NCBI GenBank assembly: GCA_030390025.1
Contig: CM059432.1
Coordinates: 86,926,001-86,990,000 of the forward strand
Origin: Squalus acanthias
Taxonomy: Eukaryota
DNA length: 64,000 nucleotides
Direction: 5' to 3'
The position numbers were made by a program, and so were the translations under genes. The notes below the pieces were generated by a model. The model saw only the letters and a list, made by a program, of their open reading frames with translations. It was not told where the DNA came from and ran no database searches. Of the stretch, positions 5,192-64,000 are shown in pieces (within the stretch, counting starts at the first letter, position 1; every line of letters begins with the position of its first letter).

Positions 5192-6130
5192 GAATGACCT
5201 TCCGTCCATCATAAGGTCAGAAATGGGGATGTTCGCTGATGACTGCACAGTGTTCAGTGCCATTCACAACTCCTCAGACAATGAAGCAGTCCATGCTCGC
5301 ATGCAACAAGACCTGGACGACATTCAGGCTTGGGCTGATAAGTGGCAGGTAACATTCGTGCTACGCAAGTGCCAGGCAATGACTATCTCCAACAAGCGAG
5401 AGTCTAACCACCGCCCCTTGACATTCAACGGCATTACCATCGCCAAATCCCCCACAATTAACATCCTGGGGATCACCATTGACCAGAAACTTAACTGGAC
5501 CAGCCACATAAATACTGTGGCAACAAGAGGTCAGAGCTAGGTATTCTGCAGCAAGTGTCTCACCTCCTGACTCCCCAAAGCCTTTCCACCATCTACAAGG
5601 CACAGGTAAGGAGTGTGATGGAATACTCTCCACTTGCCTGGATGAGTGCAGCTCCAACAACACTCAAGAAGCTCAACACCATCCAGGACAAAGCAGCCCG
5701 CTTGATTGGCACCCCATCCACCATCTTAAACATTCACTCCCTCCACCACCGGCGTACCATGGCTGCAGTGTGTACCATCTACAAGATGCACTGCAGCAAC
5801 TCGCCAAGGTTTCTTCGACAGCACCTCCCAGACCCGCGACCTCTACCACCTAGAAGGACAAGGGCAGCAGGCGCATGGGAACACCACCACCTCCAAGTTC
5901 CCTTCCAAGTCACACACCATCCTGACTTGGAAGTATATTGCTGTTCCTTCATCATCGCTGGGTCAAAATCCTGGAACTCCCTCCCTAACAGCACTGTGGG
6001 AGTACCTTCACCACAAGGACTGCAGCGATTCAAGAAGGCGGCTCACCACCACCTTCTCATAGGCAACTAGGATGGGCAATAAATGCTGGCCTTGCCAGCA
6101 ACGCCCACATCCCATGAACGAATAAAAAAA
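5192..6130 (+). mobile_element. LINE family A (CR1/Jockey group), 5'-truncated 3' part
   Basis: RT motifs MFADD...WADKWQVTF and IYKAQVRSVMEY; 3' tail gggcaataaatgctggccttgcc...aataaaaaaa. Confidence 0.9.
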
Positions 6131-6204
6131 TACCACTATGATGATCACTTAGGTCAAATAGTAACCAAATTCTGAAATATTATGCAATGCTGCATTAGAA
6201 TGTC

Positions 6205-8470: not shown

Positions 8471-10311
8471 TACAAAAAGCAGGACAAATCCAATCCGGCC
8501 AATTACCGCCCCATCAGTCTACTCTCAATCATCAGCAAAGTGATGGAAGGTGTCGTCGACAGTGCTATCAAGCAGCACTTACTCACCAATAACCTGCTCA
8601 CCGATGCTCAGTTTGGGTTCCGCCAGGACCACTTGGCTCCAGACCTCATTGCAGCCTTGGTCCAAACATAGAAAAATCATAAATCGTTACAGCACAGGAG
8701 GAGGCCATTCGGCCCATTGAGCCCATGCCAGCTCTCTGCAAGAGCACTGCAGCTCGTCCCACTCCCCTGCCCTATCCCCGTAGCCTTACAAATTTTTTTC
8801 CTTCAGGTACTTACCCAATTCCCTTTTGAAAGCCACCATCGAATCTGCCTCCACCACCCTTTCAGGCAGTGCATTCCAGACCATAACCACTCACTGCGTA
8901 AAAAGATTTTCCTCATGTCGCCTTTGGATCTTCTGCCAATCACCTTAAATCTGTGTCTTCTGGTTCTCAACCCTTCCGCCAATGGAAAAGTTTTGCTCTA
9001 TCTACTCTTGTCTAGACCCCTCATTATTTTGAACACCTCTATCAAATCTCCTCTCAACCTTCTCTGCTGTAAGGAGAGCAGCCCCAGCTTCTCCAGTCTA
9101 TCCACGTAACTGAAGTTCCTCATCCTTGGAACCATTCTTGTGAATCTTTTTTGCACCCTCTCAAGTCTTCACATCCTTCCTAAACATGGACAAAAGAGCT
9201 GAATTCCAGAGGTGAGGCGAGAGAGAAGTCAATGGGGATCAGTCAATGAAAATTCTCCACTGGCTGGAGTCATACCCAGCACAAAGGAAGATGGTTGCGG
9301 TTGTTGGAGGCCAATCATCTCAGCCCCAGGACATCGCTGCAGGAGTTCCTCAGGGCAGTGTCCTAGGCCCAACCATCTTCAGCTGCTTCATCAATAACCT
9401 TCCCTCCATCATAAGGTCAGAAGTGGGGATGTTCGCTGATGATTGCACAGTGTTCAGTTCCATTCGCAACTCCTCAGATAATGAAGCAGTACATGCCTGC
9501 ATGCAGCAAGACCGGGACAACATTCAGGTTTGGACTGGCAAGTAACATTTGTGCCACACAAGTGCCAGGCAATGACTATCTCCAACAAGAGAGAGTCTAA
9601 CCACTGCCCCTTGACATTCAATGACATTACCATTGCCGAATCCCCCACCATCAACATCCTGGGAGTCACTATTGGCCAGACACTTAACTGGACCAGCCAC
9701 ATAAATACTATGGCTACAAGAGCAGGTCAGAGGCTGGGTATTCTGTGGAGTGTCTCACCTCCTGACTCCCCAAAGTCTTTCCACCATCTACAAGGCATAA
9801 GTCAGGAGTGTGATGGAATACTCTCCACTTGCTTGCATGAGTGCAACTCCAACAACACTCGACGCTCGACATCATACAGGACAAAGCATCACGCTTGATT
9901 GGCACCCCCATCCACCACCTTAAACATTCAGTCCCTCCACCACCGGTGCACCATGGCTGCAGTGTCTACCATCTTCAAGATGCACTGCAGCAACTCGCCA
10001 AGGTTTATTTGATAGCACCTCCCAAACCAGCAACCTCTTCCACCTAGGACAAGGGCAGCAGGCACATGGGAACACTATCACCTCCAAGTCACACACCATC
10101 CTGACTTGGAAATATATCGCCGTTCCTTCATCGTCGCTGGGTCAAAATCCTGGATCTCCCTCCCAAGCAGCACTGTGGGAATACCTTTACCATGTGGGCT
10201 GCAGCTGTTCAAGAAGGCGTCTCACCACCATCTTCTCAAGGGCAGTTAGGGATGGGCAATAAATGCTGGCCTTGCCAGCGACGCCCACATCCCATGAACA
10301 AATAAAAAAAA
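8471..10311 (+). mobile_element. LINE family A fragment interrupted by a CR1 (8670-9181, minus)
   Basis: GVPQGSVLGP...MFADD and the same 3' tail; the inserted CR1 is flanked by duplicated aaacat. Confidence 0.88.
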
Positions 10312-10691: not shown

Positions 10692-10955
10692 TTTTTTTCA
10701 TTTATGGGATGTAAACATCACTGGCAAGGCTGTAATTTATTGACCATTTCTAGTTGCTTTTAGCGGTTCAAATACAACGGAGTGGCTTACTAGGCCACTT
10801 CAGAGGGCAGTTAAGAGTCAACTGCGTTGGTGTGGAATTGGAGTCACAAGTAGGAGAGACTGGGTAAGGACATTAGGTTTCTTTCCCTAAAGCACATTAG
10901 TGAACCAGTTGGTTTTTTTCCCCCCTAACAATCAAACAGCTTAATGGTCACTTTT
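10692..10955 (-). mobile_element. Short non-coding derivative of LINE family A (5'UTR joined to 3' tail); related pieces at 14410-14527 (head only) and 28275-28472
   Basis: Sequence matching 26800-26980 is joined near 10760-10770 to a diverged family A 3' tail with no ORF between. Confidence 0.7.
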
Positions 10956-12176: not shown

Positions 12177-12195
12177 TGTATGTATGTATGTATGT
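12146..12195. repeat. (TATG)n microsatellite
   Basis: About 12 direct units. Confidence 0.95.
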
Positions 12196-12216
12196 ACACA
12201 CACACATAAAAATAAT

Positions 12217-14211: not shown

Positions 14212-14222
14212 ATAATATATAT

Positions 14223-14328: not shown

Positions 14329-16811
14329 CATATATATATATCTCTACCACGTTATACCAACCTTTGCATATATGCAGTGGGGACTGTATCAGGTTATTTT
14401 CATATTTTTTTTAATACTGAATTCCAATTCTCAAACTGCTACAGCGAGATTTGAACTCACATTCTCCAGATCAGTGATCTAGTCCGCTGGGTTATTAGTC
14501 CAGTAACGTAACCACTGCACCACCGCATATAAAAGCAAATTCGTTCTTAAAAATCAGTTATGCCCACTCGAGTACTGCTGTGCATTTAGTAAAGACTGAC
14601 ATTTCCTGGCTTACACTTCCCTGGGTACCATGTCCGTCCTTCACATCAATTTCTAGGCAACCCAGAATGCATCTTTAAGTTACACAATCTGAGTTTCTCC
14701 CGGGAGTGAGAAAAGGTGTGCTGCTGGGATGGATGGATGGGATTATTGGAATTTTAGAAAGAAAATTAAAATAGCTTCAAGAATGTTTTTAACAACAGAA
14801 AATATAAATGAGTAAGGAGAGGCTGGAGATAAAACTGTGAACAAGAGAAGGGGTGACAGTTACAAAAGAGCTGGACTTCAGATGAGTGGAAATCCAAGTC
14901 AGTTTGGAAAGCAAGGAAAAAGTAGTAATTGAAACCGGATATAGGCTATTAGTGAAAACAAGGAAACTGAAATGGTCTTACAATGGAACTGCCACAGCAT
15001 CCACATGGTTAGTTTCGTTTTCATTCCACCCGACAAATTTGGGAAGTGACTTATCTACACTGGATTTTACAGCAACTAGAAGTCTGAAAAGAACAAACTG
15101 ATTTCTCAACATGGAGAGATGACACTGTTGAATGTGAGCAATGACAGCAACTTTAGAGGGCCCTATTTTATTGCTGCATCGCATTCCATGTTATGAGCAG
15201 CAACATATGAAGGAACAGCAGAGGAACCAGAAATTATTAAAACAAAGCACACAATACATAAGGTAAATGGAATTAACTGAAAAGAACTACACTTTGTAAG
15301 GTTCTGGAGCAGCCATGCATTTAAACAAACTTAGTGAATCAGTGCTTTGACTTTCTCCACAACACAAATATCACCCTTCTTTCACTCTGTTGCTACTACA
15401 TGCAAGCTATTTCAAACACAATGCAGTAAATAACACTCAGAAATCCATGACAATGTCAGTGAATTTATATGAAAACTTGTATTGAGAAAAGACCATTGGG
15501 CCCATCAAGCCTGTTCCTTCCATAACTCCTGCAAGACAACCTCAATTGTTGACTCTCTACCCACTCCACGTTCTTGAAGGCAAATCTAACAAGTATTGAA
15601 GTCTTAATTTCCTTTTTAAGTGGTGGGACTGCTGGAGTTTGGCAGCACAGAGGATTTTTTGTAGGGGGGGAACCAGAGGGTTGGCAGAAGGGAGCACGGA
15701 TGGGATGTGGCAGTTGGCTCATTGGAAAGGCCTCAAGTTTATCAGCAGGGAGAGGAAGGGGAAGAGCATGAGCTTGATAACATTGGATGGGACCAGCACT
15801 GGTTTGCAACTTTCAGAGATCTCAGCCAGCAGTAAAATCTGTACTTTACTTCTAGGGCCATCATAAGTTTGTCTCTCTCTCTCCAGACAGAACAGACAGT
15901 TTGAGACATTTTGGGTGTGTACCATTTATCAGGACTGAAGACGGTTCTGATGAAAGAGACACACCTGAAATGTCATTTTTTAAATATACAGATGCTGAGC
16001 GACCTGCTGTGTATTTCCAGCATTTACAGTTTTTCTTTTACTTCTAACCATCATCAAAACACAGGAGATAATTAGAGGCTTTGTTTGCTTTCAAAATGTA
16101 ATTTGTTTTAAAAATTGAAATGAGGTTGAGGAAAAACAATATGGCTTAGTCATCCAGCCCACCCCCACCCTTCTATTTGGATGCATCTCCAGGGAATGGG
16201 ACTTTTGCACACCATGGACACGCACCCTGACCCAGCTGACTTTCTGGGCTCTACCAGGAAGCCCGGTCATAAAAAGTGCAGAGTTCTGCCTTGGCAGGCC
16301 TGCTGCAGTTTGGCCAGGCCATGTGAGCACTTGCACAGGCCCCATCAGAATTTATTTCCTGCCCTTTCCACCAACCACTAAATGCTGGATACATGGGCCA
16401 AACAAGACAGCCTTTACATCCAGCAGCCAATCAGTGCATGTATTTCCCTCATTTGCATACTGTTTACATCCCCCTCCCCATGTGAATGAATGTATTCTGC
16501 ACTGACAGAACTGACCCTGTAAAATAGGATGGGTCGGGAGAGGGGGTGGCGGGTAATAGAAGGTACACACAGGCAGGAACACTAGAATACAACCTCCGAT
16601 CTTTGTGTTTCGCTCTCTGTCTCACAATGTTAGTAATTTGAATACTATATTTCCTATCCATTAACAAAACACAGGTGATAATTAGAAGCTTTGCTTGATA
16701 TAAACGTAACCTGTAGAAAAAATTCAAATTAGGAAGAGGAAATACATTGTTTTTCAGCTGAATGTTTTGAAGTTTATAAAGTATCTATCACATCAGTACT
16801 AATTTAATCAC

Positions 16812-24087: not shown

Positions 24088-27000
24088 ATTATGGGGACGT
24101 GGGCGTCGCTGGCAAGGCCAGCATTTATTGCCCATTGCTAATTGCCCTCGAGAAGGTGGTGGTGAGCCGCTGCCTTGAACCGCTGCAGTCCATGAGGTGA
24201 GGTTACTCCCACAGTGCCGTTCCAGGATTTTGACCCAGTGACGATGAAGGAACAGTGATATATTTCCAAGTCAGGATGGTGTGCGACTTGGATGGGAACT
24301 TGTAGGTGATGGTGTTCCCATGCGCCTGCAACCCTTGCCCTTCTAGGTGGTAGAGGTTGCGGGTTTGGGATGTGCTGTCGAGGATTCCATGGCAAGTTGT
24401 TGCAGTGCATCTTGTACATGGTACACGCTGCAGCCACGGTGTGCTGGTGGTGGAGGGAGTGAATGTTTAAAGTCGTGGATGGGGTGCCAGTCAAGCGGGC
24501 TGCTTCGGCCCGGATGGTGTCGAGCTTCTTGAGTGTTGTTGGAGCTGCACTCATCCAGACAAGTGGAGAGTATTCCATCACACTCCTGACTTGTGCCTTG
24601 TAGATGGTGCAAAGGCTTTGGGAAGTCAGGAGGGGAGTTACTCACCGCAGAATACCTAACATCTGACCTACTCTTGTTGCCACAGTGTGTGGCTGGTCCA
24701 GTTAAGTTTCTGGTCAATGGTGACCCCCAGGATGTTGATGGTGGGGGATTCGACGATGGTAATGTCACTGAATGTCAAGGGGAGGTGGCTAGACTCTCGC
24801 TTGTTGGAGATAGTGATTGCCCAGCACTTGTGTGTCCTGAATGTTATTTGCCACTCATCAGCCCAAGCCTGAACATAGCTCAGTTCTTGCCGCAGCAGCA
24901 TGGTTTGCTTCATTATCTGAGGAGTTGCGAATGGAATTGAACACTGTGCAATCATCAGCGAACATCCCACTCTGACCTTCTGTTGGAGGGACAGTCATTG
25001 ATGAAGCAGCTGAAGATGGTTGGGCTTAGGACACTGCCCTGAGGAACTCCTGCAGCGATGTCCTGGGGCTGAGATAATTGGCCTCCAACCACCACAACCA
25101 TCGTCCTTTGTGGTAGGTATGACTCAAGCCGGTGGAGAGGTTTCCCCGATTCCCACTGACTTCAATTTTACTAGGACTCCTTGATGCCACACCCAGTCAA
25201 TTGCTGCCTTGGGCAGTCATTCTCCCCATCCCTCTGGAATTCAGCGCTTTCGTCCATGTTTGGACCAAGGCTATAATGAGGTCTGGAGCAGAGTGCTCTT
25301 GGCAGAACCCAAACTGAGCATCGGTGAGCAGGTTATTGGTGAGCAAGTGCTATGTGAAAACAGCACCGTCAACAACCCCTTCCATCGCTTTGCTGATGAT
25401 TGAGAGAAGACTGATGGGGCGGTAATTGGCCGAATTGGATTTGTCCTGCTTTTTGTGGACAGGACATACCTGGGCAATTTTCCTTTGTCAGGTAGATGCC
25501 AGTGTTGTAACTGTACTGGAATGGCGTGGCTAGTTCTGGAGCACGTCTTCATTGTAGCCAGGATGTTGTCCAGGCCCACAGCCTTTGCTGTATCCATTGC
25601 GCTCAGCCATTTCTTGATATCACGTGGAGTGAATCAAATTGGCTGAAGACTGGTTTCTGTGATGGTGAGGACCTCAGGAGTAGGCAAAGATGGATCATCC
25701 ACTCAGCACTTCTGGCTGAAGATGGTTGCAAACGCTTCAGCCTTGCCTTTTGCACTTGTGCTGGGCTCCGCCATCATTGAGGATGGGGATGTTCATGGAG
25801 TTTCCTCCTCCTGTTAGTTGTTTAATTGTCCACCACCATTCACGACTGGATGTGCCAGGACTACAGAACGTTGACCTGATCCGTTGGTTGTGGTTCACTT
25901 AGCTGTCTATAGCATGCTGCTTCCGCTGTTTATCATGCAGCTTCACCGGGTTGGCACCTCATTTTTAGGTGCAACTGGTGCTGCTCCTGGCATGCTCTTC
26001 TACACGCCTCATTGAACCAGGGTTGGTCGCCTGGCTTGCTGGCAATGGTAGAGTGAGGGATATGCGGGGCCACGAGGTTTCATATTGTGGTGGAATACAA
26101 TTCTGCTGCCGCTGATGGCCCAGAATGCCTCATGGATGCCCAGTTTTGAGCTGTTAGATCTGTTCTGAATCCATCCCATTTAGCACGGTGGTAGTGCCAC
26201 ACAACACAACTGAGGGACTCTTCAGTGTGAAGACGGGACTTTGACTTCAGTAGTGATGCTATCAAGCCACACTTGGTGATGGACATTAAAGTTCCACACC
26301 CAGAGTACATTCTGTGCCCTTGTTACCCTCAGGGCTTCTTCAAATGGTGTTCAACATGGAGGAATACTGATTCATCAGCTGAGGGAGGGCGGTAGGTGGT
26401 AATCAGCAGGAGGGTTTCTCGCCCAGGTTTGACCTGAAGCCATGAGACTTCATGGTGTCCAGAGTCAATGTTGAGGACTCCCAGGGCCACTCCCTCCTGA
26501 CTGTATATCACCTGTGGTGGGTCGGTCCTGCCGGTGAGGCAGGGCATACCCAGGGATGGTGATGGAGGAGTCCGGGCCGTTGGCTGAAGGGTATGATTCT
26601 GAGTATGACTGTCGGGCTGTTTCTTAACTAGTCTGTGGGACAGCTCTTCTAATTTTGGCACAAGCCCACGGATGTTAGTGAGGAGGACTTTGCAGGATCG
26701 ACTGGGCTGTGTCTACCTTTGTCGTGTAAGAATCCGATGCCTCGGTCGATACCGGGTGGTCCGTCCGTTTTATTCTGATTATACTTTGTCGTAGTGGTTT
26801 GATACAACCGAGTGACTTGCTAGGTCATTTCAGAGGGCAGTTAAGAGTCAACCACATTGCTGTGGGTCTGGAGTCACATATAGGCCAGACCAGGTAAGGA
26901 CAGCAGATTTCCTTCCCTAAATGACATTAGTGAACAAGATGGGTTTTTACGACAATCCGGTAGTTTCATTATCACCATTACTGATACTAGCTTCCTTTTC

Positions 27001-27119
27001 CAGATTTATTTAAAAAACTGAATTTAAATTCCAAAGATACCATGGTGGGATTTGAACTCCTGTCTGCAGATCAGTGGTCCAGGCCTCTGGATCACTAGTC
27101 CAGTAACAATTATGCTACC
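24088..27119 (-). mobile_element. LINE family A, near full-length decayed copy (tRNA-like head, short 5'UTR, APE-RT ORF, 3' tail) in an ELOC intron
   Basis: APE fragments (PKLEELSHRL...TTYRPPSADES) from about 26700, RT fragments 24138-25600, tail near 24090-24140, head about 27040-27119. Confidence 0.9.
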
Positions 27120-27162
27120 ACATGTCACCAATTGCTGATAGTTAAGTGACTGCACAACTTAC

Positions 27163-30170: not shown

Positions 30171-32804
30171 GAGGTAATTTACAAGATAGTTAAAGGAATG
30201 GAAGCGGCAAATCGGTAAGATTACTTTAAATTAAATTGCGAGAGTAGGACAAAGGGACATGGGTTCAAAGTAGTCAAAGGTAAAGTTATCAGGAAGTTCT
30301 TGACAGAGAGAAATCAATACATGGAATGGACTCTAGATGCAGTAGTGGAGGTAAAAACCCTGAACTCATTTAAGAACCAATTTGCCACTGCAATGGGGAC
30401 TGTAGGGTCTTTCTGGACAGATCAGCTGAGATGGGTTGAATGGTCTCCCTCGTGTAATTATATTGAGATCTCTAATCAAACATGAGGCACCCTGAGGGAG
30501 TGCTTGAATTCTAATAGCACCAGAAGTCCAGATTCTAGTGGATTTTGGAATCAGACGTTGGATTAGCTACCTCCTGTGCTGGCCTGCTAAAGGTGTGGAG
30601 TTAGTTTTGTGCGTCCATGCACTTGCATTGTGACACAAACACAAGAAATTACTCCACAATCGATCCCCAGTCCTGGTACAGTCTAATGTTCCCATTTATA
30701 TGGTGCTACAAAATAGATTTGAAAATTATGATTTCAAAGTCCCTTTTCAACCCAAAGATGGCGTGTATTGGATTACAACGCAGAGAAAAACAAAAACAAA
30801 ATCATATGTAATCCAATACACGCCTTCTTCCATGCTGTAACCATTCTATGATTCTATAATACACTTCTACAATACTCTTTATTCACCATCTCAAGTTGTT
30901 ATCACCACTAGTCTTAACCATAATGCTGTACAGACACAACCCAATTTAGATGACAAATCTACAAATTAATTTCACTGCTGGGGAATTTCATTTCAATGGA
31001 GCAGAGTATGTTCATCTTACACACCCATCATAATGCTTTACTGAAAGCCTAACATCAATACTCTAAACAGCAAGTGCTGATCTCAAAAGGACAATTGGCT
31101 CAGTTAGTTACTAAAGCCAACAGTATGAGAGATACTACAGCTACAGTTATTAATTGATAGAGCTTCAGTCAATGACATCATTTTAGCTATAAATTTTAGA
31201 ATGAGGGGCTAACCACCCTGGTCACACTGCACTTTGGGAACTGGAATCATTCCAAATCTGTTGAAATCTGAGGTATAGGGCAAGATTTGTCAGAAAGTAG
31301 GTCGAACGGGAACAAAATGTGCATTATGCATTTGGCTACAGTATAGCTGCAAATAATTTTTGGTGCAGGACTGTGCCTCAGAATGCACTGCCACAGAATT
31401 GTGGTAAAAGTTTTTCACTAAGGCACTATAGCCAGCTGAAATTTAACCTATCGTTAATGCAACCAGGACCAGGCACAATGACCCCCCCAGAGCTGTGTCC
31501 AAGCTCGAAGACTGGCAAAGAAAAACCCGTGTCCACTGCAGGCTGGGTGTCAGCTTGGCTCAGTTGGTGGAACTCTCACCTTGAGCATAAAACCTAGGCT
31601 GTTACTTCAGTGGAGTATTGAGGGAGTGCTGGATCAGAGGCGCTGACCTTTGGTTGAGATGTCAAACTAGTGCCCTGGTCAACATTCCTCCCTCAAACAT
31701 CCAAAGTCACATCAATGCTATGTGCAAAATGGCTGTTCTATTAATCCACACAACAATAAGTGTGCATCATGTATGTGAAGCATTTTGGGACATTTGCGAT
31801 GCGATAGGTTCGATATAATTGCAACTTTGTGCATTCTTTAAATCTTTGGGAAACACTAAACTGAAAAAATTCACTGGGAACTGCTGCAGACAAGTGCCAG
31901 CTGAGATGGTGAGCCGTCTATGTGCTTTGAATGTTACTGGCGATCTGGAAGCAGTCAGCAGTTCAAAGTGACCCCCCTTTTCAGTCAGGAAGTGTCTGGA
32001 CTCCACTCTTTCCCCTTCTCTTCTCTTCTCCTCTCCTCTCCTCTCCTCCCCACCCCCCCAAACCACCCCTCAACAACTGCAGAGAACATTCAACCTACAA
32101 TTACTGAACAGTCTGTTGGGAGTCCAATATGTCACATCATCCATTAAAAGACATGCAGACAAAAACCATTACCAGTTCAGTTTACAGCACTTAAAATTGC
32201 TTTCCTCAACATGTCTTGGTTTTTAAAACAGCATCAGCAAGGTGAACTTCACTTGCCCCATTTATAATTAGTCTCAATTTGAAAAAAAATACTTGCAACA
32301 ACAAGCGACATCCTCCCTGGAGTCCAACATACATGGTTTCAACTGAGATTGCAACAGAGATAGTACACCACCTGCTATTATATTATTTTAACCTGAATAA
32401 AACCATGTTGACACTTGTCTAAAAATCCATACTTTAGTCTGTGGAGCACTGTTTATTTAAAAAATAAATTGATTTTCAAGTGGCACATGGAAAACATTTC
32501 CACATACCTTTTATTAAAAAAATTACTTCACAACCATTTGAGTAAATGGAGCACAAAAACTTAACTGCCAGAAATACATTCACAGGGACAATTGTGTACA
32601 AGAATGGTTTGTCAACACTCACTTGATGCCTAAGAAACATTTGTTTAAATTCCCAAAAACTATTTGAAATATATCCATTGGCCCCGTTTCTCAAGTCAAA
32701 ATTTCAAATTTGGTTTGAACAAGGAAATGTTGCCATTGTAAAAAAATAAAACTCCAGGCTTCACTGCTAAGATCCATTGACATTTACATAAATGTTGAAT
32801 CATA

Positions 32805-33161
32805 AAAAAGACTTGCATTAATATAGCGCCTTTCACGACCTCAGGATGTCCCAAAGCACTTTACGGAAGTACTTCTGAAGTGTAGTCACTGTTATAATGT
32901 AGGAAATGTAGCAGCCAATTTGCATACAGCAAGCTCTCACAAATAGTATTGTGATGATGACCAGGTAATCTGTTTTAGTGATGTTGGTCGAGGGATAAAT
33001 ATTGGCCAGGACACTGGGGATAACTCCGCTGCTCTTCTTCGAAATAGTGCCATGGGATTGTTTACATCCACCCGAGAGAGCAGACAGGGCCTCGGTTTTA
33101 CATCTCATCCAAAAGACAGCATCCTAGACAGTGCAGCACTCCCTCAGTACTGTGCTGGAGT
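32805..33161 (-). mobile_element. DeuSINE copy (5'-truncated)
   Basis: Reverse complement of the 6984-7431 family. Confidence 0.8.
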
Positions 33162-33829
33162 CTCTTCCTTCTTTAATCTTCTTTTCCCACCATTCTCCTC
33201 CTCTCCAAAAGGCAATAACTCCTTGCTGGTTTCTTGAGCTCCAGTCGACTTCCAATACCTCGCCATACGAGCCCAGACAGCCAGTGTCCACTGGGTATTT
33301 AACCCCTGGTGGGGAGTTTCATCACAGACAAAAACCTATCTTGTCATCTAATGTCACACTTAAATGTCACATAACAATCAGAACTCAGGATCCCGGCCAA
33401 TTTCCCCTTGCCTAACCCAGGACGGCCAAGACCCACTGCTGGAACCCCAGTTCTGAACCATTAGCTCATCAGATTAGGAACAAACTTGGGACCTTCCCGA
33501 TACGCATTTCTCTGCTACTCACTGACTTCAAGCCATTGAAGGAGGCAATCTCTCTTTTTCTGAAGAGCAATATGTGTGTTTGTCATCTTTCATTTTTGTA
33601 CTTTTGATCCTCTTCTCTGTCTGGCTTGGTACCTGCAGCTGAGACTCTTCGTGGAGACCAAGCCCCCTCTTCACACAGAGGACACCCTTCATCTTGTCGT
33701 GTGACATTACCACCATGCTAAGTGGGATAGATTAAGAACAGATTTGCAGTTCAAAACGGCTAGTCAGGATATGACGGAGTGATACTTGCAGGTGCTGGTG
33801 TTCCTATGCACTTGCTACCCTTGTCCTTA

Positions 33830-34272
33830 GTGTGTCAGCTGTGGTTCAGTGGGTAGCACTCCTGTGAGTCAGAAGGTTGTGGGTTCAGGGAACTTAAGCA
33901 CATAATCTAGGCTGACAGCCCAGTGCAGTATTGAGGGAGCACTGCACTGTCGGAGGTGCAGTCTTCCGGATGAGATGTTAAACCAAGGCCCCGTCTGCTC
34001 TCTCAGGTAGACTTAAAAGATCCCATGGCACTATTTCAAAGAATGCAGGGGAGTTATCCCTAGTGTCCTGGCCAATATTTATCCCTCAACCAACATCACA
34101 AACAGATTATCTGACCATTGTCACATTGCTGTTTGTGGGAGCTTGCTGTGTGCAAAGTGGCTGCCATGTTTCCTATATTACAACAGTGACTACACTCCAA
34201 AAAGTACTTCATTGGCTGTAAAGTACTTTGGGATAGCCAAAGGTCATGAAAGGGGCTATATAAATGCAAGTA
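33830..34272 (+). mobile_element. DeuSINE copy
   Basis: Same family; A box tggttcagtgggt. Confidence 0.8.
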
Positions 34273-35059
34273 TTTCAATTTTCATCCACCACGTGATTTA
34301 CCTATCTTAAGGGATTTATGAATTTCTCAGGTGATTAAGTGCAATATGAAATATGCAGCTACACAACAGGAAAGTTCCAGGCTCAACTCCTAGTCTGCCC
34401 AGAGTTTGCCAACCTTAGCTAGGCTGAGTGTGCTCCAATTGGGTTCAATGCCCCCGAGCTAAGGCTGGGAAAAATAAGCTACCGACCAGGGTTTTCACTT
34501 CTGATCACTGCTCACTTACCTCTGCTGGAAATGTGCATGGGCTGAAATGGCTTCCTCGCACGTTTGAATAGCCTATAAATGTCCAGGCTCACATACAAAG
34601 AACTGTCAGCTGGGAAAGGCATTAGATGCCTGCTGGCACCTGTAGATCTAAAACCCATAATCAGCAAAAAAGGGGAAAAGAGGAGGAAATGGGGTATCTT
34701 TTCCCATAAATACTCAAAAGATAAGACCACTGCGGGGCTTGCCATGGAGCATGTTCTTTTAATTTGCAGCAATGAAGTCCTTTTAATGTTGGTATTTATC
34801 TTCCCTCGCTCTTTCAGCTAAATTTTTGGGGGTAGGAGGATGTTTAGGATATTCTGATGACCGACAGATGCCCTTGGTTAAACTGACCGAGTGCGTTATC
34901 TGGACTAAACAAATCTGCACAGGGAGATCAGTGCAGCTTATTCACTGCTGAAGCAGTTTTGTTGTTATTTTCAACTTTTATTCATGGAATATTTATGCCA
35001 GACACTATTTGCAGAATTTTTTCAGGCCGTAGACATAGAGTAGTAAAGGGAAAGAACCC

Positions 35060-36246: not shown

Positions 36247-39200
36247 ATATTCATTCACGGGATGTGGGTGTCGCTGGCAAGGCCAGCATTTATTGCTCAT
36301 CCCTAATTGCCCTCGAGAAGGTGGTGGTGAGCCGCCTTCTTGAACCGCTGCAGTCTATGTGGTGAACGCACTCCCACAGTGCTGTTAGGGAGGGAGTTCC
36401 AGGATTTTGACCCAGTGATTATGAAGGAATGGTGATATATTTCCAAGTCAGGATGGTGTGTGACTTGGAGGAGAACTTGGAGGTGGTGTTCCCATGCACC
36501 TGCTGCCCTTGTTCTTCTAGGTGGTAGAGGTTGCAGGTGCTGTCGAAGAAGCCTTGGCGAGTTGCTGCAGTGCATCTTGTAGATGGTACACACTGCAGCC
36601 ACAGTACGCCGATGGTGGAGGGACTGAATGTTTAAGGTGGTGGATGGGTGCCAATCAAGTGGGTTGCTTTGGCCTGGATGGTGTCAAGCTCCTTGAGTGT
36701 TGTTGGAGCTGCACTCATCCAGGCAAGTGGGGAGTATTCCATCACACTCCTTACTTGTGCCTTGTAGATGGCAGAAAGGCTTTGGGGAGTCAGGAGGTGA
36801 GACACTCGCTGCAGAATACCCAGCCTCTGACCTGCTCTTGTAGCCACAGTATTTATGGTCCAGTTAGGTTTCTGGTCAATGGTGACCCCCAGAATGTTGA
36901 ATGTCAAGGGGCGGTGGTTAGATTCTCTTGTTGGAGATGTCATTGCCTGGCACTTGTGTGTTACTTGCCACTTATCAGCCCAAGCCTGAACGCTGTCCAG
37001 GTATTGCTGCAGCAGGCACGGACTGCTTCATTATCTGAGAAGTTGCGAATGGAACTGGACACTGAAATCATCAGTGAACATCCCCACTTCTGACCTTATG
37101 ATGGAGGGAAGGTCACTGAAGAAACAGCTGAAGATGGTTGGGCCTTGGACACTGCCTTGAGGAACTCCTGCAGCAATATTCAGGGACTGAGATGATTGGC
37201 CTCCAACAACCACAACCATCTTCTTTTGTACTAGGCATGACTCCAGCCAGTGGAGAGGTTCCCTGATTCCCATAAACTTCAATTTTACTAGGGCTCCTTG
37301 ATGCCACACTCAGTCAAATGCTGCCTTGATGTCAAGTGCTGCCTTGATGTCAAGTGCAGTCACTCTCACCTCACCTCTGTAATTCAGCACTTTTGTTCAT
37401 GTTTGGACCAAGGTTGTAATGAGGTCTGGAGCCAAGAGTGGTCCTGCAGGAACCCAAACTGAGCATCGGTGAGCAGGTTATTGGTAAGTGCCGCTTGATA
37501 GCACTGTTGACGACACCTTCCATCACTGTGCTGATGATTGAGAGTAGACTGATGGGGTGGTAATTGGCCAGATTGGATTTGTCCATCTTTTTTGTGGACA
37601 GACATACCTGAGCAGTTTTCCATATTGTCAGGTAGATGCTAGTGTTGTAGCTGTACTGTAACAGCTTGGCTAGTTTTTATTTATTCGTTTATGGGATGTG
37701 GGCGTCACTGGCAAGGCCAGCATTTATTGCCCATCCCTAATTGCCCTCGAGAAGGTGGTGGTGAGTCGCCTTCTTGAACCATTGCAGTCCGTGTGGTGAA
37801 GGTACTCCCACAGTGCTGTTAGGGAGGGAGTTCCAGGAGTTTGACCCAGTGACGATGAAGGATCGGCGATAGACTTCTAAGACAGGATGATGTGTGACTT
37901 GGAGGGAAACTTGGAGGTGGTGGTGTCCCCATGTGCCTGCTGCCCATGTCCTTCTAGTGGAAGAGGTTGCAGGTTTGGAAGGTGCTGCCGAAGAAGCCTT
38001 GGCAAGTTGCTGCAGTGCATCTTGTATATGGTACACACTGCAGCCACGGTACGCCGGTGGTGGAGAGAGTGAATGTTTAAGGTGGTGGATGGGGTGCCAA
38101 TCAAGCGGGCTGCTTTGTCCAGGTTTGGTCCTCTCGCTTGCTGGTGATGGTAGAGCGAGGGATATACTGGGTCATTAGTTTACAGATTGGGGTGGAGTAC
38201 AATTCTGCTGCTGCTGATTGTCCACAAGGCCTCATGGATGCCCAGTTTTGAGCTGCTAGATCTGTTCTGAATCTATCCCATTTAGCACGGTAGTGCCACA
38301 AAACACAATGGAGGGTATCCTTAATGTGAAGATGGGACTTCGTTTCCACAAGGACTGTGCGGTGGTCAATCCTACCAATATTGTCATGGACAGCTGCATC
38401 TGCGACAGGTAGATTGGTGAGGACGAGGACAAGTAGGTTTTTCCCTTGTGTTGGTTCTCTCACCACCTGCCGCAGGCCCAGTCTGCAGCAATGTTCTTCA
38501 GGACTCGGCCAGCTCAGTCAGTCGTGGTACTACCGAGCCACTCTTTGTGATGAACATTGAAGTCCTCAACCCAGAGTACTTTGTGCCCTTGCTACTCTCC
38601 GTGCTTCTTCCAAGTGCTGTCCAACATGGAGAAGTACAGAGTCATCTGCTGAGGGAGGGCAGTAAGTGGTAATTAGTAGGATGTTCCCTTGTCCTTCCCT
38701 CTTATTTTATTTTCTGGTGCATGGACCCTTTTTAATTGGCTGCACGGCCCATTCAAATTTTTGCACATGCACAGTTTCTCCCGTATAAAAGATGGTGTGT
38801 GGCTTGTGCGGGACCTCCAGACTGTTGTGCAGCTTAACGGGAACATTGCTCCCAGAGCCACTCCCTCCCATCTGTGCCGCCACCTCTGGTGGGACAGGAC
38901 ATACGCAGGGACGGTGATGAGTAGTCCGGGACGTTGGCTGAAAGGTATGATTCTGTGAAAATCTCAGACTGTTGCTGACTAGTCTGTGGGACAGCTCTCC
39001 CAATTTGGCACAAGTCCTCAGATGTTAGTGAGGATGACTTTGCAGGGTCGACTGGGCTGTGCCTTTGTCGTCTCCGAATCCGGTGCCTAGGTCGATGCTG
39101 GGTGGTCCATCCAGTTTTATTCTTATTGTTTTTTGTAGCGTTTGATACAACTGAGTGGCTTGGTAGGCCATGTCAGAGGGAAGTTAAGAGTGAACCTCAT

Positions 39201-39460
39201 TGCTGTGGGTCTGGAGTCACATATAGACCAGATCGGATAAATATGGTAGATTTCCTTCCAAAAGGACATTAGCAAACCAGATGGGTTTTTATGACAATCT
39301 GGTAGTTTCATGGTCACCATGAAACCTGATACTAGCTTTTTTATTCCAGATTTATTTAATTAACTGAATTGAAATTCCTCAGGTGGGATTTGAACTTACG
39401 TTTATTAGTCCAGGCCTCTGGATTATTAGTCCAGTAACGTAACCACTATGCTACCGTTCC
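36247..39460 (-). mobile_element. LINE family A composite: full-length-ended copy with a second 3' end (about 37674-38123) and a hAT MITE piece inside
   Basis: Two 3' tails (near 36250 and 37680), RT and APE fragments in the ORF track, tRNA-like head at about 39380-39460. Confidence 0.88.
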
Positions 39461-41079
39461 CCTAAGTTAGATCCACAAATCTAAAATGACATATTGCACT
39501 GGGACCTATGTAATAGTCTGCCAGATCTGGTGTTAACTACTTAAAACATTTTGGTGAATATGTTTTTGTTCTGAATATTGTCAAAGAATTTGACAAAGCA
39601 AGACACTCCACACTTCAAAATAAGTTACCATCATTGCCTCCCCTACACTGCAATTCATGGCTTATCCTCTGGCTTTTTCCATTAGCTCAAGGATCCCCAC
39701 TCTGTTACTAATGATCTTCTCCACTCATCATCCAACCCTATTCACTCCTCATTTGCTTCTGATTCCAGTCTACAATCAACTTCCTTCAGATTGCCCATCC
39801 TCAGTTCATACAATTATTTCACTGCAATGATTGAATCGATATATCCAAGTCTCTTTCATGCCATGAGGGGCCTATTAAAAGCTTTAATGGTTAAGCTTTT
39901 TTGTGTTTTGCAAATCTTACCAACAGCTACCACCTTTGATGACTCCACCCTTGATCCTTCTGCACTAATGAATATTCTTAGCCTAACTGTCTCCTATCTG
40001 AATAGCCACTCACTCATGCAAACCCATATGCCGCAAAACCCCAAAACTATGCGTCACCAAGACCACCTATTCCCACATCTAAAAATTACTTGCCTCCATC
40101 CCTACCTGACCAGCACTGCCATACTTTCATCAGCTCCTAACTCAACCCCTTCAATTATCTCATTTATAGTTTATAGGACCTTGCTGTGCACAAATTGGTT
40201 GCCCCATCTGCTAATATAAGTGCCTGCATTTCAGAAAAGTAATTCACTGTCTGTTACATTATATATAATGCAAGTACATATGGGGCAAATTTGTTTTTTC
40301 ACACAGATAAACATACCAAACATTATGGTTCTGAGCCATGCAGAACAGGTTGGTCATCAGTTTAATCTCAGCTGGGATAGAAATGGGCCCATTTGTGGAA
40401 TAATGCTCGAGATTCTGATTTCTAATTGCAATTCAGTGACTCTAGCTGCATAGCTGGATGAAAGGCGAGGACAGGACCAAGTTTAGCTGTGATTTTCTTC
40501 CCAATATGGTCAAATGAACAATGGCCCCTTGAATAGGGTATTAGAGAGCTAGTGATCTACAACCTAGCATGAGTCACCATTTTCACCGAGGGGAGAAAAC
40601 GAACAAAAACCTCTTAATTGCTGAAACATACTTTGTTCCACTGTGTCAATGCTTTATCAGTTTACACAGAATCCATGTACAAAGAATCCTGATCCCACAT
40701 ATGTACAGAAAAATTCCAAACACTTAATATTTAGGTCAGGTTACAATTACTGCTAACACAACATTCAAAAAACTAGGCGAACTTTCTACTCTTTTTCAAA
40801 TAGTAGCATCAGATTTTCCACAGCCACCCGAATGAGAGATAGAACATCTCATCGAAGAGGGGGCAATGCTGCACTTCCACGACACTACAATGAAGTGCCG
40901 TCTTAGATTCGATGCCCTAGTCCTGGAGTGGGAATTGAGCCCAATATATCTTCGAACAGGTGAGCGTGCCATAGAGTTGAACTGGTATATAAAGTTGCAG
41001 TGTACGTGCGGAGATAAGACATTCACACACTCTGGTACATTTCAGAAAATAAAACCCCTCAACACGGATGAACGTGGAG

Positions 41080-41680: not shown

Positions 41681-42214
41681 TATGTCAATCACAGTGGAAG
41701 CAGGAGGGTGTTCCAGAGTGGGCAATGCAGCACCTGGGCAGGCTGGACTCAGTGAGGACTTGTTACTGGAGGGGCTAATATTGGGCAGGGTGCTTTCATG
41801 GTTTAAGCAAGCGGAACTGGGGGTGGGTGATAGGAAAAGACCATTTGGTCCATACAGCCTGTCCCATACAGACGCGGGGCACCTACATGCACCAACGATT
41901 GAATGAACAAACGATGCTAGTAGGACTGGCGTAAAACGGGTAGTAGTATATTTGTAGCATTTAATTGAATTATGATGGTGCTATGTGATTTGTACACTGA
42001 GGTGTTAAACTGTTTTCTTTTATGTGGAGTTTACCTTGAGATTTACTGTTTTAAATCTACAAAGTTTGTGTGAGATTATTTAAGGGTATTTGTACTGTAA
42101 ACTTTGTTGATTTATTTGTAAAATTTTATTAATGTATTTATATTGTTAATCGTAAAGCTGTTCTTAAGGCTTTATTGTTTATTGTGATCAATGAATGTAA
42201 TGGTTTACTACAGT

Positions 42215-43324
42215 GAGAAGTCACACAACACCAGGTTATAGTCCAACAGCTTTATTTGAAATCACAAGCTTTCGGAGCGCTGCTCTTTCGTCAGGTGAAG
42301 TGAAGAAATACATATGGGCACAGCATATATAGCCAGAGAACAATGCCAGACGACTACAGTTAATCTTTCTAACTGCCCTTTATCACACCTCGGCAGAGAG
42401 ACAATCACGGCAATCAAAGGTATGGATGGTGTCCAACCAGGTCAGTCAGGAAGACAATACATCAAAGACGATAGCAAAACACAACAAAGACAATGAGGTG
42501 GGGTCACATGTGGCAGATGCTGGAGTCTGTATGGAAAACAAAAAATGTTTTTACTTTTTTTGCTGGAAATCACAGCAGGTCCGGCCGTATCTGTGTAGAG
42601 AGAACAAGCCAGCGACGACTCGAGTCTGGATGACTCTACGTCAGGTGGGGTTACATGTAGCGTGACATGAACCCAAGATCCCGGTTGAGGCCGTCCTCAT
42701 GGGTGCGGAACTTGGCTATCAGGTTCTGCTCGATGATTTTGCGTTGTGTGTCTCGAAGGCCTTCGAATCATCGAGCAGAAACTGATAGCCAAGTTCCGCA
42801 CCCATGAGGACGGCCTCAACCGGGATCTTGGGTTCATGTCACGCTACATGTAACCCCACCTGACGTAGAGTCATCCAGACTCGAGTCGTCGCTGGCTTGT
42901 TCTCTCTACACAGATGCGGCCGGACCTGCTGTGATTTCCAGCAAAAAAAGTAAAAAAAATTTTTGTTTTTCATACAGACTCCAGCATCTGCCACATTTGA
43001 CCCCTTGTGACCCCACCTCATTGTCTTTGTTGTATTTTGCTATCGTCTTTGATGTAATGTCTTCCTGACTGACCTGGTTGGACACCATCCACACCTTTGA
43101 TTGCCGTGATTGTCTCTCTGCCGAGGTGTGATAAAGGGCAGTTAGAAAGATTAACTGTAGTCGTCTGGCATTGTTCTCTGGCTATATATGCTGTGCCCAT
43201 ATGTATTTCTTCACTTCACCTGACGAAGGAGCAGCGCTCCGAAAGCTTGTGATTTCAAATAAAGCTGTTGGACTATAACCTGGTGTTGTGCGACTTCTTA
43301 CTTTTGTCCACCCCAGTCCGCATC
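42215..43324. mobile_element. Large palindromic Penelope-like element
   Basis: About 525-bp inverted arms; the centre encodes a GIY-YIG C-terminus (KIIEQNLIAKFRTHEDGLNRDLGFMS). Flanking direct repeat atggtttacta (42200-42210, 43325-43335). Confidence 0.9.
43217..43251 (+). ncRNA. Minimal type I hammerhead ribozyme motif (other copies: 6295-6329 -, 16900-16936 -, 17179-17215 +, 42263-42297 -)
   Basis: CAC-CTGACGA-aGGAGC-agc-GCTCC-GAAA-GC-TT-GTG: conserved core, stem II, stem I CAC/GTG, and a palindromic AAGCTT in place of stem III. Confidence 0.78.
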
Positions 43325-44626: not shown

Positions 44627-44716
44627 AAACTTCTTCTCTGGCTCCTGAAGGAAATAGCAAGACCCCGGAAACATATGAAACATACAAAAAGTATTGGAAA
44701 ACTGGAAAATTTGAGT

Positions 44717-45137
44717 TTGTCAGCTAGTGGCTCAGTTGGTAGCACCCTTGCCTCTGAGTCAGAAGGTTGTGGGTTCAAGTCCCACTCCAGAGCCTTCAGC
44801 ACAAAAATCTAGGCTGTTGGAGGTGCCGTCTTTCAGATGAGACGTTAAACCGAGGCCCCGTCTGCTCTCTCAGGTGGTCGTAAAAGATCCCATGGCACTA
44901 TTTCAAAGAAGAGCAGTGGAGTTATCCCCGGTGTACTGGCCAATATTTATCCCTCAACCAACATAACAAAAACAGATTATCTGGTCATATCACATTGCTG
45001 TTTGTAGGAGCTTGCTGAGCACAAATTGGCTGCCGCATTTCCTACATTACAACAGTGATTACACTTCAAAAGTACTTCATTGGCTGTAAAGCGCTTTGGG
45101 ACGTCCGGCGGTCGTGAAAGGCGCTATATAAATGCAA
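44717..45137 (+). mobile_element. DeuSINE copy
   Basis: A box tggctcagttgg, B box ggttcaagtcc, Deu-like core. Further decayed copies at about 31545-31830, 45933-46327 and 57030-57227. Confidence 0.82.
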
Positions 45138-45749
45138 ATGGCATGTTGGCCTTTATTGCAAGGGGATTGGAGTACAAGAGTAAGGAAGTCTTACTACAAT
45201 TGTACAGGGCTTTGGTGAGACCACACCTGGAGTACTGTGCACAGTTTTGATCTCCTTATCTGAGAAAGGACATACATGCCTTAGAGATGGTGCAACGAAG
45301 GTTCACTTGCTTGATTCCCTTGGATGAGAGGGTTGTCCTATGAGGAGAGATTGAGTAGATTGGGCCTATACTCTGGAGTTTAGAAGGATGAGAGGTGATC
45401 TCATTGAAACGTATAAGATTCTGAGGGGTAGATGCTGAGAGGTTGTTTCCCCTGGTTGCAGAGTCCAGAACTAGGGGGCATAGTCTTAGGATAAGGGGTT
45501 GGCCATTTAAGACTGAGATGAGGTGGAATTTCTTCACTCGTTGTGAATCTTTGGAATTGTCTACACGAAAGGGCTGTGGATGCTGAGTTGTTGAGTGTAT
45601 TCAAGACTAAAAATTCTAGGGAATCAAGGGATATGGGGATCAGGCGGGAGAGTGGAGTTGAGGTCGAAGATCAGCCATGATCTTATTGAATGATGGAGCA
45701 GGCTCGAAGGGCCGTATGGCCTACTCCTGCTCCTAGTTCTTATGTTCTT
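45134..45749 (+). mobile_element. CR1 3' fragment inserted into the tail of a DeuSINE
   Basis: CR1 C-terminal coding sequence and tail; the remainder of the SINE tail (aagtcttttgctttc) resumes at 45750. Confidence 0.88.
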
Positions 45750-61137: not shown

Positions 61138-63080
61138 ACTTGTGTGGCACTGCCACTGTGCTAAATGGGATAGATTCAGAACAGATCTAGCAGCTCAAAA
61201 CTGGGCATCCATGAGGCGCTGTGGGCCATCAGCAGCAGCAGAATTGTATTCCACCACAATCTGTAACCTCATGGCCCTACATATCCCTCACTCTACCATT
61301 AGCATCAAGCCAGGGGACCAACCCTGGTTCAATAAGGAGTGTAGAAGAGCATGCCAGGAGCAGCACCAGGCATACCTAAAAATGAGGCGCCAACCTGGGG
61401 AAGCTGCAACACAGGACTACATGCATGCTAAAAAGCGGAAGCAGCATGCTATAGACAGGGCTAAGCGATCCCACAATCAACGGATCAGATCAAAGCTCTG
61501 CAGTCCTGCCACATCCAGTTGTGAATGGTGGTGGACCATTAAACAACTAACAGAAGGAGGAGGCTCCATGAATATCCCCATTCTCAATGATGGTGGAGCC
61601 CAGCACGTGAGTGCAAAAGACAAGGCTGAAGCGTTTGCAACCATCTTCAGCCAGAAGTGCTGAGTGGTTGATCCATATTAGCCTCCTCCTGCGGTCCCCA
61701 CCCTCAGAGGAGCCAGTCTTCAGCCAATTCGATTCACTCCACGTGATATCAAGAAACGGCTGAGCGCAGTGGATACAGCAAAGGCTATGGGCCCTGACAA
61801 CATCCTGGCTATCGTGCTGAAGACTTGTGCTCCAGAACTAGCCGCGCCTCTAGCCAAGCTCTTCCAGTACAGCTACAACACTGGCATCTATCCGACAATG
61901 TGGAAAACTGCCCAGGTGTGTCCTGTCCACAAAAAGCAGGACAAATCCAATCCGGCCAATTACCGCCCCATCAGTCTACTCAATCATCAGCAAAGTGATG
62001 GAAGGTGTCATCGACAGTGCTATAAAGCGGCACTTACCAATAACTTGCTCAGTTTGGGTTCTGCCAAGACCACTCAGCTGCCGACCTCATTACAGCCTTG
62101 GTCCAAACATGGACAAAGAAGCTGAATTCCAGAGGTGAGAGTGACTGCCCTTGACATCAACGCAGCATTTGACCGAGTGTGGTATCAAGGAGCCCTAGTA
62201 AAACTGAAGTCAGTGGGAATTGGGGTAAAACTCTCCACTGGCTGGAATCATACCTAGCACAAAGGAAGATAGTTGTGGTGATTAACCTTCAATCATCACA
62301 GCCCCAGGACATCGCTGCAGGAGTTCCTCAGGGCAGTGTCCTAGGCCCAACCATCTTCAGCTGCTTCATCAATGACCTTCCCTCCAACATAAGGTCAGAA
62401 ATGGAGATGTTCGCTGATGACTGCACAGTGTTCAGTGCCATTCACAACTCCTCAGATAATGAAGCAGTCCATGCCTGCATGCAACAAGACCTGGACGACG
62501 TTCAGGCTTGGGCTGATAAGTGGCAGGTAACATTCGCACCACAGAAGTGCCAGGCAATGACTATCTCCAACAAGCGAGAGTCTAACCACCGCCCCTTGAC
62601 ATTCAATGGCATTACCATCACCGAATCCCCCACCATCAACATTCTGGGGGGTCACCATTGACCAGAAAATTAACTGGACCAGCCACATAAATACTGTGGC
62701 AACAAGAGCAGATCAGAGGCTAGGTATTCTGCGGCGAGTGTCTCACCTGACTCCCCAAAGCCTTTCTATCATCTACAAGGCACAAGTAAGGAGTGTGATG
62801 GAATACTCTCCACTTGTCTGGATGAGTGCAGCTCCAACAACACTCAAGAAGCTCGACACCATCCAGGACAAAGCAGTCCGCTTGATTGGCACCCCCTCTA
62901 CCAACTTAAACATCCACTCCCTCCACCACCAGCGTACCGTGGCTACAGTGTGTACCATCTACAAGATGCACTGCAGCAACTCGCCAAGGTTTCTTTGGCA
63001 GCACCTACCAAACCCGCGACCTCTTCCACCTAAAAGGACAAGGGCAGCAAGCGCATGGGAACACCACCACCTCCAAGTTC
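61138..63080 (+). mobile_element. LINE family A, internal ~1.9 kb fragment
   Basis: Successive frameshifted ORFs 61115-63112 covering the post-APE linker, RT and C-terminus. Confidence 0.9.
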
Positions 63081-64000
63081 CTTTCTATCTACCCTATCTA
63101 TGCCCCTCATAATTTTGTACACCTCAATCAGGTCCCCCCTCAGTCTTCTCTGCTCTAAGGAAAACAACCCCAGCCTGTCCAGTCTCTCTTCATGGCTGAA
63201 GCGCTCCAGCCCAGGTAACATCCTGGTGAATCTCCTCTGCACCCTCTCCAATGCAATCACATCCTTCCTATAGTGTGGCGACCAGAACTGCACACAGTAT
63301 TCCAGCTGTGGCCTAACTAGCGTTTTGTACAGCTCCATCATAACCTCCCTGCTCTTATAGTCTATGCCTCGGCTAATGAAGGCAAGTATCCCATATGCCT
63401 TTTTAACCACCTTATCTACCTGTCCTGCTGCCTTCAGGGATCTATGAACATGCACACCAAGGTCCCTCTGATCCTCTGTCCTTCCTAGGATCCTAGCATT
63501 CATTGTGTATTCCCTTGCCTTGTTAGTCCTCCCAAAATGCATCACCTCACACTTTTCAGGGTTAAATTCCATTTGCCACTGTTCTGCCCATCTAACCATC
63601 CCGTCTATATCGTCCTGTAGCCTGAGGCTTCCCTCCTCGCTATTTACCACTCCACCAATTTTCGTGTCATCTTCGAACTTACTGATCATACATCCTACAT
63701 TCATATCTAAATCATTAATGTACACTACAAACAGCAAAGGACCCAGCACCGATCCCTGCGGTACACCACTGGACACAAGCTTCCAGTCACAAAAACAACC
63801 TTCGACCATCACCCTCTGCCTCCAGCCACTAAGCCAATTTTGGATCCAATGTGCCAAATTGCCCTGGATCCCATGGGCTCTTACCTTCTTGACCAGTCTC
63901 CCATGTGGGACTTTGTCAAAAGCCTTACTGAAGTCCATGTAGACTACATCAACTGCACTACCCTCATCCACACACCTAGTCACCCCCTCAAAAAATTCAA
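63081..64000 (-). mobile_element. CR1 LINE RT region with an uninterrupted ~300-codon ORF; runs off the window
   Basis: DVVYMDFSKAFDKVPH...SGVPQGSVLGPLLF...KFEDDTK...LVRPQLEYCVQFWSP. Confidence 0.95.

Follow-up and report, generated by a model that had tools for sequence, protein, structure and literature searches.

LINEs and SINEs are divided in the literature by their promoter and by their coding capacity, and the requirements of Pol II and Pol III transcription have been suggested to conflict (Kojima 2018). The closest described relatives of the element analysed here are the Zenon LINEs of the CR1 group. According to the text and supplement of Stuart et al. 2026 (PMC13343379), Zenon occurs in five elasmobranchs with a mutual likeness of more than 84%, and all of these families are poly(A)-tailed and without ORF1. 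The same source treats the poly(A) tail and the absence of ORF1 as clade-wide traits, found in Zenon of all phyla, and puts the Zenon share of the genome at 0.7-6.8% in seven elasmobranchs versus 0.02% in a chimaera.

Here we analyse a stretch of 64,000 nucleotides from Squalus acanthias (the window), in which an initial annotation had reported a LINE with a tRNA-like head. Judged by its sequence, the window element is an elasmobranch Zenon LINE of Stuart et al. The annotation had left open whether the family was catalogued. The family is, as Zenon; the head is not described in PMC13343379, where "tRNA", "promoter", "polymerase" and "Pol III" have 0 occurrences in the main text and in that of its preprint. 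A whale shark preprint names CR1-Zenon once in the text available to us and does not mention the head. In the literature searched, no shark LINE with a tRNA head is described; an earlier description may exist beyond it, in Repbase or Dfam, in most of the subscription journals or in supplements on bioRxiv. Thus the family and its missing ORF1 are already known, and the head appears to have gone unremarked in the searched literature; like the head, the derived SINEs and an oddity of the start codon are not described in PMC13343379.

Results

The family in the window

The window is repeat-rich. It contains two headed copies of the family (A and B), five more coding fragments, one solo head and one body-plus-tail piece (Table 1 gives the main features). 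Three window motifs match solely Zenon rows in the consensus table of PMC13343379 (2, 7 and 5 matches), and copies A and B agree with the elasmobranch Zenon consensuses by eye over the first 400 nt of each row. The first bases of copy A are, by eye, the first bases of three SquAca_Zenon rows. The published consensuses also correct the unit length, first estimated at ~3.5 kb, to ~3.3 kb.

The window family has an APE followed by an RT in a single ORF. RVT_1 scored above its cut-off in two of eight window fragments (C and D). The APE was recognised by similarity to P0131, which is APE plus RT by Pfam and whose N-terminus is matched by the APE start of copy B (E 1e-10). In a quick tree, three window RTs fell inside a set of 21 rows (SH-aLRT 97), apart from 82 other rows; no row carried a Zenon label, and the placement as Zenon rests on PMC13343379. 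The best RT match of the window was a chimeric Heterodontus protein, and the shark ORF2 products returned by protein searches were chimeric or short, none of them being full-length. The APE-start motif had 0 matches in metagenome contigs in its 20-nt form and 0 in viral contigs in its 19-nt form.

Table 1. Positions of the Zenon features discussed in the text (window coordinates)
Feature	Position	Strand	Basis
tRNA-like head, forming the element's 5' end, copy A	39380..39461	-	motif positions, Rfam, A+B scan; start agrees by eye with SquAca_Zenon rows
A box of copy A, TAGCATAGTGG	39443..39453	-	motif check, A+B scan
Anticodon-like arm of copy A (first 5-bp stem/7-nt loop), CTGGA-CTAATAA-TCCAG	39418..39434	-	
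Remnant of second, duplicated arm, copy A	39402..39413	-	fuller in copy B and solo head; second hairpin by eye in 6/7 consensuses
B box of copy A	39385..39395	-	motif check, A+B scan
Non-coding body (5' UTR), copy A	39172..39379	-	common to SINE-like derivatives; not Meta domain by eye
Third small hairpin, holding the sole AUG in frame with ORF2 (39171; 26828 in copy B)	39155..39172	-	frames, consensuses by eye
Basic N-terminal stretch and APE start, frameshifted, copy A	38888..39154	-	alignment, P0131 similarity
206-nt stretch in place of part of the APE, copy A	38682..38887	-	no homologue elsewhere in window
3' half of APE and start of linker, copy A	38123..38681	-	
First 3' end of copy A: ORF2 C-terminus, stem-loop, AATAAA, A-rich tail	37680..38123	-	joined to linker across short shared motif
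Second piece of copy A: RT domain, C-terminus, 3' stem-loop, tail	36248..37675	-	
Copy B, almost full-length; A box lost or damaged, small APE deletion	24089..27107	-	
Solo head	14397..14525	-	A and B boxes; 79% to majority state
Bipartite derivative (SINE/SIDE): body end joined to last ~55 nt of LINE; head not preserved	10693..10918	-	
Fragment C: linker, RT, C-terminus	61140..63081	+	
Fragment D: 5'-truncated, tailed	5193..6133	+	
Fragment E: tailed; 8472-8672 may be an upstream part that a CR1 insertion has separated	9182..10311	+	

The interval 36247-39460 had been taken as one copy. Self-alignment of the window instead shows it to be composite, with 3' ends at two places and 206 nt of foreign sequence: head, body and APE start run from 39460 to 38888, the remainder of the APE follows the 206 nt and reaches 38123, and the sequence there jumps to a complete 3' end. 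We read this material as a decayed and rearranged elasmobranch Zenon copy, the unit being ~3.3 kb with APE, RT and a poly(A) tail and without ORF1. There is no clear target-site duplication around copy A, and its 5' 331 nt fold no better than shuffles (z -1.36).

In copy B, similarity starts at ~27107-27118. A possible 7-nt duplication, CATAATT, lies at both ends of this copy; it is ambiguous and overlaps element sequence. The alignment of copies A and B is continuous over head, body and APE start (80.7% over 580 columns), and their flanks are unrelated, which upholds the claim that head, 5' UTR and APE are joined alike in both. The apparent absence of ORF1 also stands, in that the ~400 nt between head and APE have stops in all frames and no ORF of at least 120 aa. 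An exon at 27165-27310 (minus strand), which we take to be a coding exon of Elongin C, ends ~55 nt upstream of copy B, so that copy B is sense-oriented just inside that intron.

Copy B was also mapped against contigs of four organisms, in one run each (184,777, 189,791, 236,917 and 7,537 contigs). In all four runs the contigs cover every bin from tail to head, and in the flank the depth falls to that of a single copy. Body and linker are bridged across 26768-26990 by one contig, which has 33 differences. A contig of run X6 spans the copy B head and flank (window 27003-27350) with 9 differences, marking a shared insertion. In run X9, a contig whose fit to the flank begins at 27111 may represent an empty site, which would fix the 5' boundary of copy B.

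A tRNA-like head at the 5' end of the element

The head is built of two tandem hairpins between an A box and a B box. In copy A, a motif check found A box, arm and B box on the minus strand where the initial annotation had placed them. The same head had been reported for copy B, where the arm (27103-27087) and the B box (27057-27047) were recovered and the A box is not intact; a relaxed A+B scan detects copy A and the solo head (at 14522), not copy B. The heads in the window are decayed and score under tRNA thresholds: ARAGORN called 0 tRNA genes, the Rfam tRNA score of the copy A head is 17.5 bits versus a gathering score of 29, and the copy B head has no match to Rfam tRNA. Lowering the ARAGORN threshold yielded 31 window matches, which we took as noise. 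An A+B scan of 80 related loci (288 kb) returned one match, which was antisense, and none upstream of L049, a Zenon-like metagenome element described below.

Against a viral tRNA panel that was chosen for the stem and is therefore biased, the best local scores of the heads were 45.5, 42.5 and 48, with shuffled maxima of 30, 34.5 and 32.5. The copy A head scored 45.5 with tRNA-Gln, 43 with Ser and 20.5 with Thr(AGT) in this small panel, in which 33 Gln stand against 2 Thr(AGT) among 63. With the arm masked, Gln leads for copy B and the solo head and Ser/Asp lead for copy A, in the same biased panel. The proposed tRNA(Thr/Ile) origin of the head is thus weak, Gln and Ser scoring far above Thr(AGT) within the limits of that panel, and the head looks more like a tRNA-Gln or Ser.

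The head, consisting of A box, arm and B box, opens all seven elasmobranch Zenon consensuses of the PMC13343379 supplement from base 1, as judged by eye from the first 400 nt. These rows are 2,886-3,314 nt long and represent five species (white shark, stingray, whale shark, catshark and, with three rows, dogfish). Over the same length and also by eye, the head is absent from the three non-elasmobranch Zenon rows, two from hagfish and one from coelacanth. Six B-box words compared with the whole supplement (~1,000 CR1-group consensus starts) gave 6 matches, all in elasmobranch Zenon rows; the B box of the stingray row is degenerate and matches none of the words. Because all seven consensuses begin with the head, it is in sharks and rays alike the 5' end that belongs to the element, as the annotation had held in calling it part of the architecture of the element and not a chance SINE insertion. 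The head had further been thought to replace ORF1. Zenon of all phyla is without ORF1 (PMC13343379), so the loss of ORF1 is older than the head. Judged by eye, the second hairpin almost repeats the first in the dogfish-type rows, keeps its pairing with other letters in three other species and is lost in the stingray row.

Runs of T on the sense strand

Pol III terminates at runs of at least four T. The annotation had proposed a check for such terminators on the sense strand; run on the window copies, it shows no ancestral TTTT run at any place covered by more than one copy. Nine family fragments (10,110 nt) contain 5 runs of four or more T (T4+), each private to one copy, and 12 other retroelement fragments of the window (8,258 nt), used as a control, contain 32. 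The majority state over 1,896 columns has 0 T4+, versus 7 A4+, 8 C4+ and 4 G4+. The family has 0.5 T4+ per kb in the window, versus a median of 7.3 and a minimum of 1.5 in the 66 of 80 related loci with a scorable span, loci that are richer in T than the window family and of which just two (L048 and L049) belong to the same RT clade. The deficit is partly compositional, since T makes up 21% of the element. Under a first-order model, 5 T4+ are observed and 11.2 expected, and G4+ (15 versus 29) and C4+ (32 versus 47) are also low. The copies are not independent, so the P values are overstated.

AATAAA lies ~45 nt ahead of the A tail, as in Pol II units, and also occurs within the 5' UTR, three times in copy A and once in copy B. 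L049 (1-4120), which comes from a metagenome, is Zenon-like and nearly complete; its 5' region measures 1.1 kb and holds a short direct repeat, and the element has a poly(A) end. It is without ORF1 or A and B boxes and has 16 T runs, and this combination fits a head and a T scarcity that would be special to elasmobranchs. From the boxes and the scarcity of T4, we think it somewhat probable that Pol III transcribes the whole Zenon unit.

The start of ORF2

RNA made by Pol III is uncapped. In copy B and in the consensuses, an amber stop is codon 3 from the hairpin AUG, the sole AUG in frame with ORF2 (Table 1). Followed upstream by eye, the APE frame passes first an Arg-rich stretch that resembles the P0131 N-terminus, then an A-rich one, and continues up to the motif AUG-codon-amber-CAA. 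Such an amber-CAA context is similar to those of leaky stops. The motif is present by eye in six of the seven published rows and in all five species; SquAca-3 has deletions there. Between the motif and the APE, or the visible end, the frame is unbroken in the consensuses of three of the five species, by eye over the first 400 nt; the whale shark row and the dogfish row are each one base off, the dogfish row having an additional stop as well. At the position of the hairpin AUG, the SINE-like piece reads GTG.

A tentative lead is that ORF2 starts at this AUG by read-through of the amber; re-initiation or a UUG four codons on are possible alternatives. The AUG motif is also part of a hairpin, so its conservation may be structural. 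The longest published ORF2s have 324-747 aa versus ~980 codons available, which fits either decay or a hidden start. A conserved ATG just past the A-rich stretch was considered as the start and rejected: by eye, it is out of frame with the APE in the HypSab row and is ATA in both window copies and SquAca-3, yet it is in frame in SquAca-2.

SINE-like derivatives

Among the joints listed, all four contig runs contain some that lead, at several breakpoints, from the body end (26802-26829) into the LINE's last 45-80 nt (24135-24170). The derivative in the window continues into the first ORF2-frame codons before it joins the tail. Because the derivative enters ORF2 codons, and because the joints occur in all four runs at several breakpoints, our data favour an origin of the SINEs from the LINE by deletion. 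The SINE-like pieces are 79-86% identical to the majority state versus 90-97% for the LINE pieces, which counts against a simple order of events. The consensus of 3' loose ends, among those listed, is a short GAAT repeat and an A run in all four runs; in the window, four of six tails are A-rich and two run into T tracts.

tRNA-derived SINEs (SINE2) have a 5' tRNA-related head with A and B boxes, and this family has one. They are also short and non-coding, as are the deletion derivatives alone (10693-10918 and the contig joints) and not the 3.3-kb APE-RT unit. We also considered a MetaSINE, with the 66-bp Meta domain in the body, and rejected it: the Meta consensus in the PMC7245038 supplement is unlike the body by eye, and five body motifs gave chance matches only.

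Other features of the window

A second, unrelated tRNA-headed repeat family lies at 44714-45137, 6993-7425, 33829-34276, 32804-33158, 57030-57212 and 45934-46148, with an A+B match at 44728, and is probably an ordinary shark SINE. Fragments of a canonical CR1-type LINE, which served as controls for T runs, are found at 7431-7989, 19741-20259, 45131-45751, 50106-50799, 60500-61033 and 63087-63995. We take the fragments at 6203-6850, 42213-42545, 42960-43319 and 16808-16935 to be Penelope-like, with a GIY-YIG-like frame at 6331-6813, and an open frame at 54814-55275 (plus strand) presumably resembles an exon of TMEM70. An inverted repeat (56076-56213 and 56702-56839; 141 bp, 84% identity, ~490 bp apart) is possibly a non-autonomous DNA transposon. 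Three related units of ~620-780 bp in mixed orientation occupy 11269-14212 and are similar to 3577-3931.

Discussion

The explanation that we favour, with modest confidence, is that Zenon gained a tRNA-derived head in sharks and rays, became a Pol III unit with a non-standard translation start and gives rise to SINEs by deletion. A Zenon already without ORF1 would have acquired the head before the split of sharks and rays; the simplest route would be that the template switched to the RNA of a tRNA or SINE. TFIIIC would be recruited by the internal A and B boxes, and Pol III could read the whole unit because there is no oligo-T terminator, stopping in the flank past the A tail. The uncapped RNA would then be translated from the AUG two codons before the amber, by read-through or re-initiation, or from the near-cognate UUG. 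ORF2p would bind the 3' stem-loop and insert the RNA by target-primed reverse transcription, and internal deletion of the headed LINE would produce a tRNA-headed SINE in one step. Against this reading stand the partly compositional nature of the T4 deficit, the AATAAA ahead of the tail, the scores of the window heads under tRNA thresholds, the need to translate an uncapped RNA whose 5' 331 nt, in copy A, fold no better than shuffles, the unbroken AUG frame in just three of the five species, and the lack of a clear target-site duplication around copy A.

Pol II could instead make the LINE RNA, from an internal promoter or by read-through. The head would still be the true 5' end but not a promoter of the whole unit, its fold being a signal for processing or protection, as self-cleaving ribozymes are for R2, RTE and Ingi, and Pol III would serve only the short SINEs. 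The AATAAA ahead of the tail would then have its usual role, ordinary translation would be possible on a capped RNA, and copy B is sense-oriented within a host intron. The lepidopteran Zenon and Persaeus are described as poly(A)-tailed without a Pol III promoter (PMC6740152), and the low counts of G and C homopolymer runs take some of the weight from the scarcity of T. However, A and B boxes are kept in five species while the stems of the head vary, the consensuses begin exactly at the tRNA 5' end, and no ancestral T4 was found. In addition, the AATAAA copies in the 5' UTR of both A and B could shorten a Pol II transcript. We regard transcription by Pol II as a genuine contender, if a rather doubtful one.

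Recurrent chimeras would explain the head in another way. Reverse transcription of a head-less LINE could switch to an abundant SINE that shares the body, and the autonomous master would have some other 5' end. Template switching is a described route of head addition (PMC4494074, PMC5786205), and the greater divergence of the SINE-like pieces implies that an old SINE exists. Against such events stand the identical junction in copies A and B and in all seven consensuses and the top published insertions, of 2.9-3.3 kb in six of seven families and 4.3 kb in one. The entry of the derivative into the first ORF2-frame codons and the several deletion breakpoints are also as expected for SINEs that come from the LINE, and we consider chimeras improbable. 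A local duplication, or the chance insertion of a SINE before a truncated LINE, might have been suspected from the presence of only two headed copies in the window and from the rearrangement of copy A. The different flanks and the ~20% divergence between A and B speak against it, and the same structure in five species refutes it, leaving it practically no chance.

In its fullest form, the proposal of a headed Zenon as a Pol III unit would make shark and ray Zenon an autonomous coding retrotransposon that is transcribed end to end by Pol III, purged of oligo-T over 3.3 kb, translated without a cap through AUG-codon-amber, present at several per cent of shark genomes and a source of SINEs by deletion. 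We hold this whole chain of claims tentatively, as a little short of an even call. If it is true, a coding LINE made by Pol III would break the rule that separates LINEs from SINEs, and would do so in a family occupying as much as ~7% of shark genomes. A LINE could then become a SINE in one step, and the translation of a long, uncapped Pol III RNA would have a natural model.

Among known systems, the published elasmobranch Zenon families (e.g., SquAca_Zenon-1) agree with the window element in 5' sequence, beginning at base 1 and continuing over body and linker, and are likewise ~3.3 kb long. They also have a single APE-RT ORF, no ORF1 and a poly(A) tail, and in the consensus portions compared we see no sequence difference from the window element. 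Two chondrichthyan SINEs, SacSINE1 (Deu) and CmiSINE (CORE), are also tRNA-headed. Their tails match L2-2_CM, no headed LINE is described with them in the text of PMC5499810, and we set them apart by that description. RTE-1_DAn and the elements related to it, which belong to the RTE clade, are LINEs with a tRNA-like sequence that matches SINE2 heads (PMC5786205), and RTE-1_DAn may be a precedent for a tRNA-bearing LINE.

The derivatives have parallels of their own. In Lepidoptera, as here, a ~3.3-kb Zenon LINE gave rise to derivatives (Persaeus) that keep its 5' and 3' parts, including the start of the ORF, and a poly(A) tail (PMC6740152). According to the same report, Persaeus has neither tRNA homology nor a Pol III promoter, whereas the shark derivative inherits its tRNA head from the LINE itself. 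Bov-tA with Bov-B, and SINE2-1_ACar with Vingi-2_ACar, share the plan of a tRNA head, a LINE 5' part and a LINE 3' tail. As these bipartite SINEs are described, however, the head was added to a derivative without coding capacity, with the LINE regarded as a Pol II product, whereas in shark and ray Zenon the head sits on the coding element (PMC5786205, PMC4494074).
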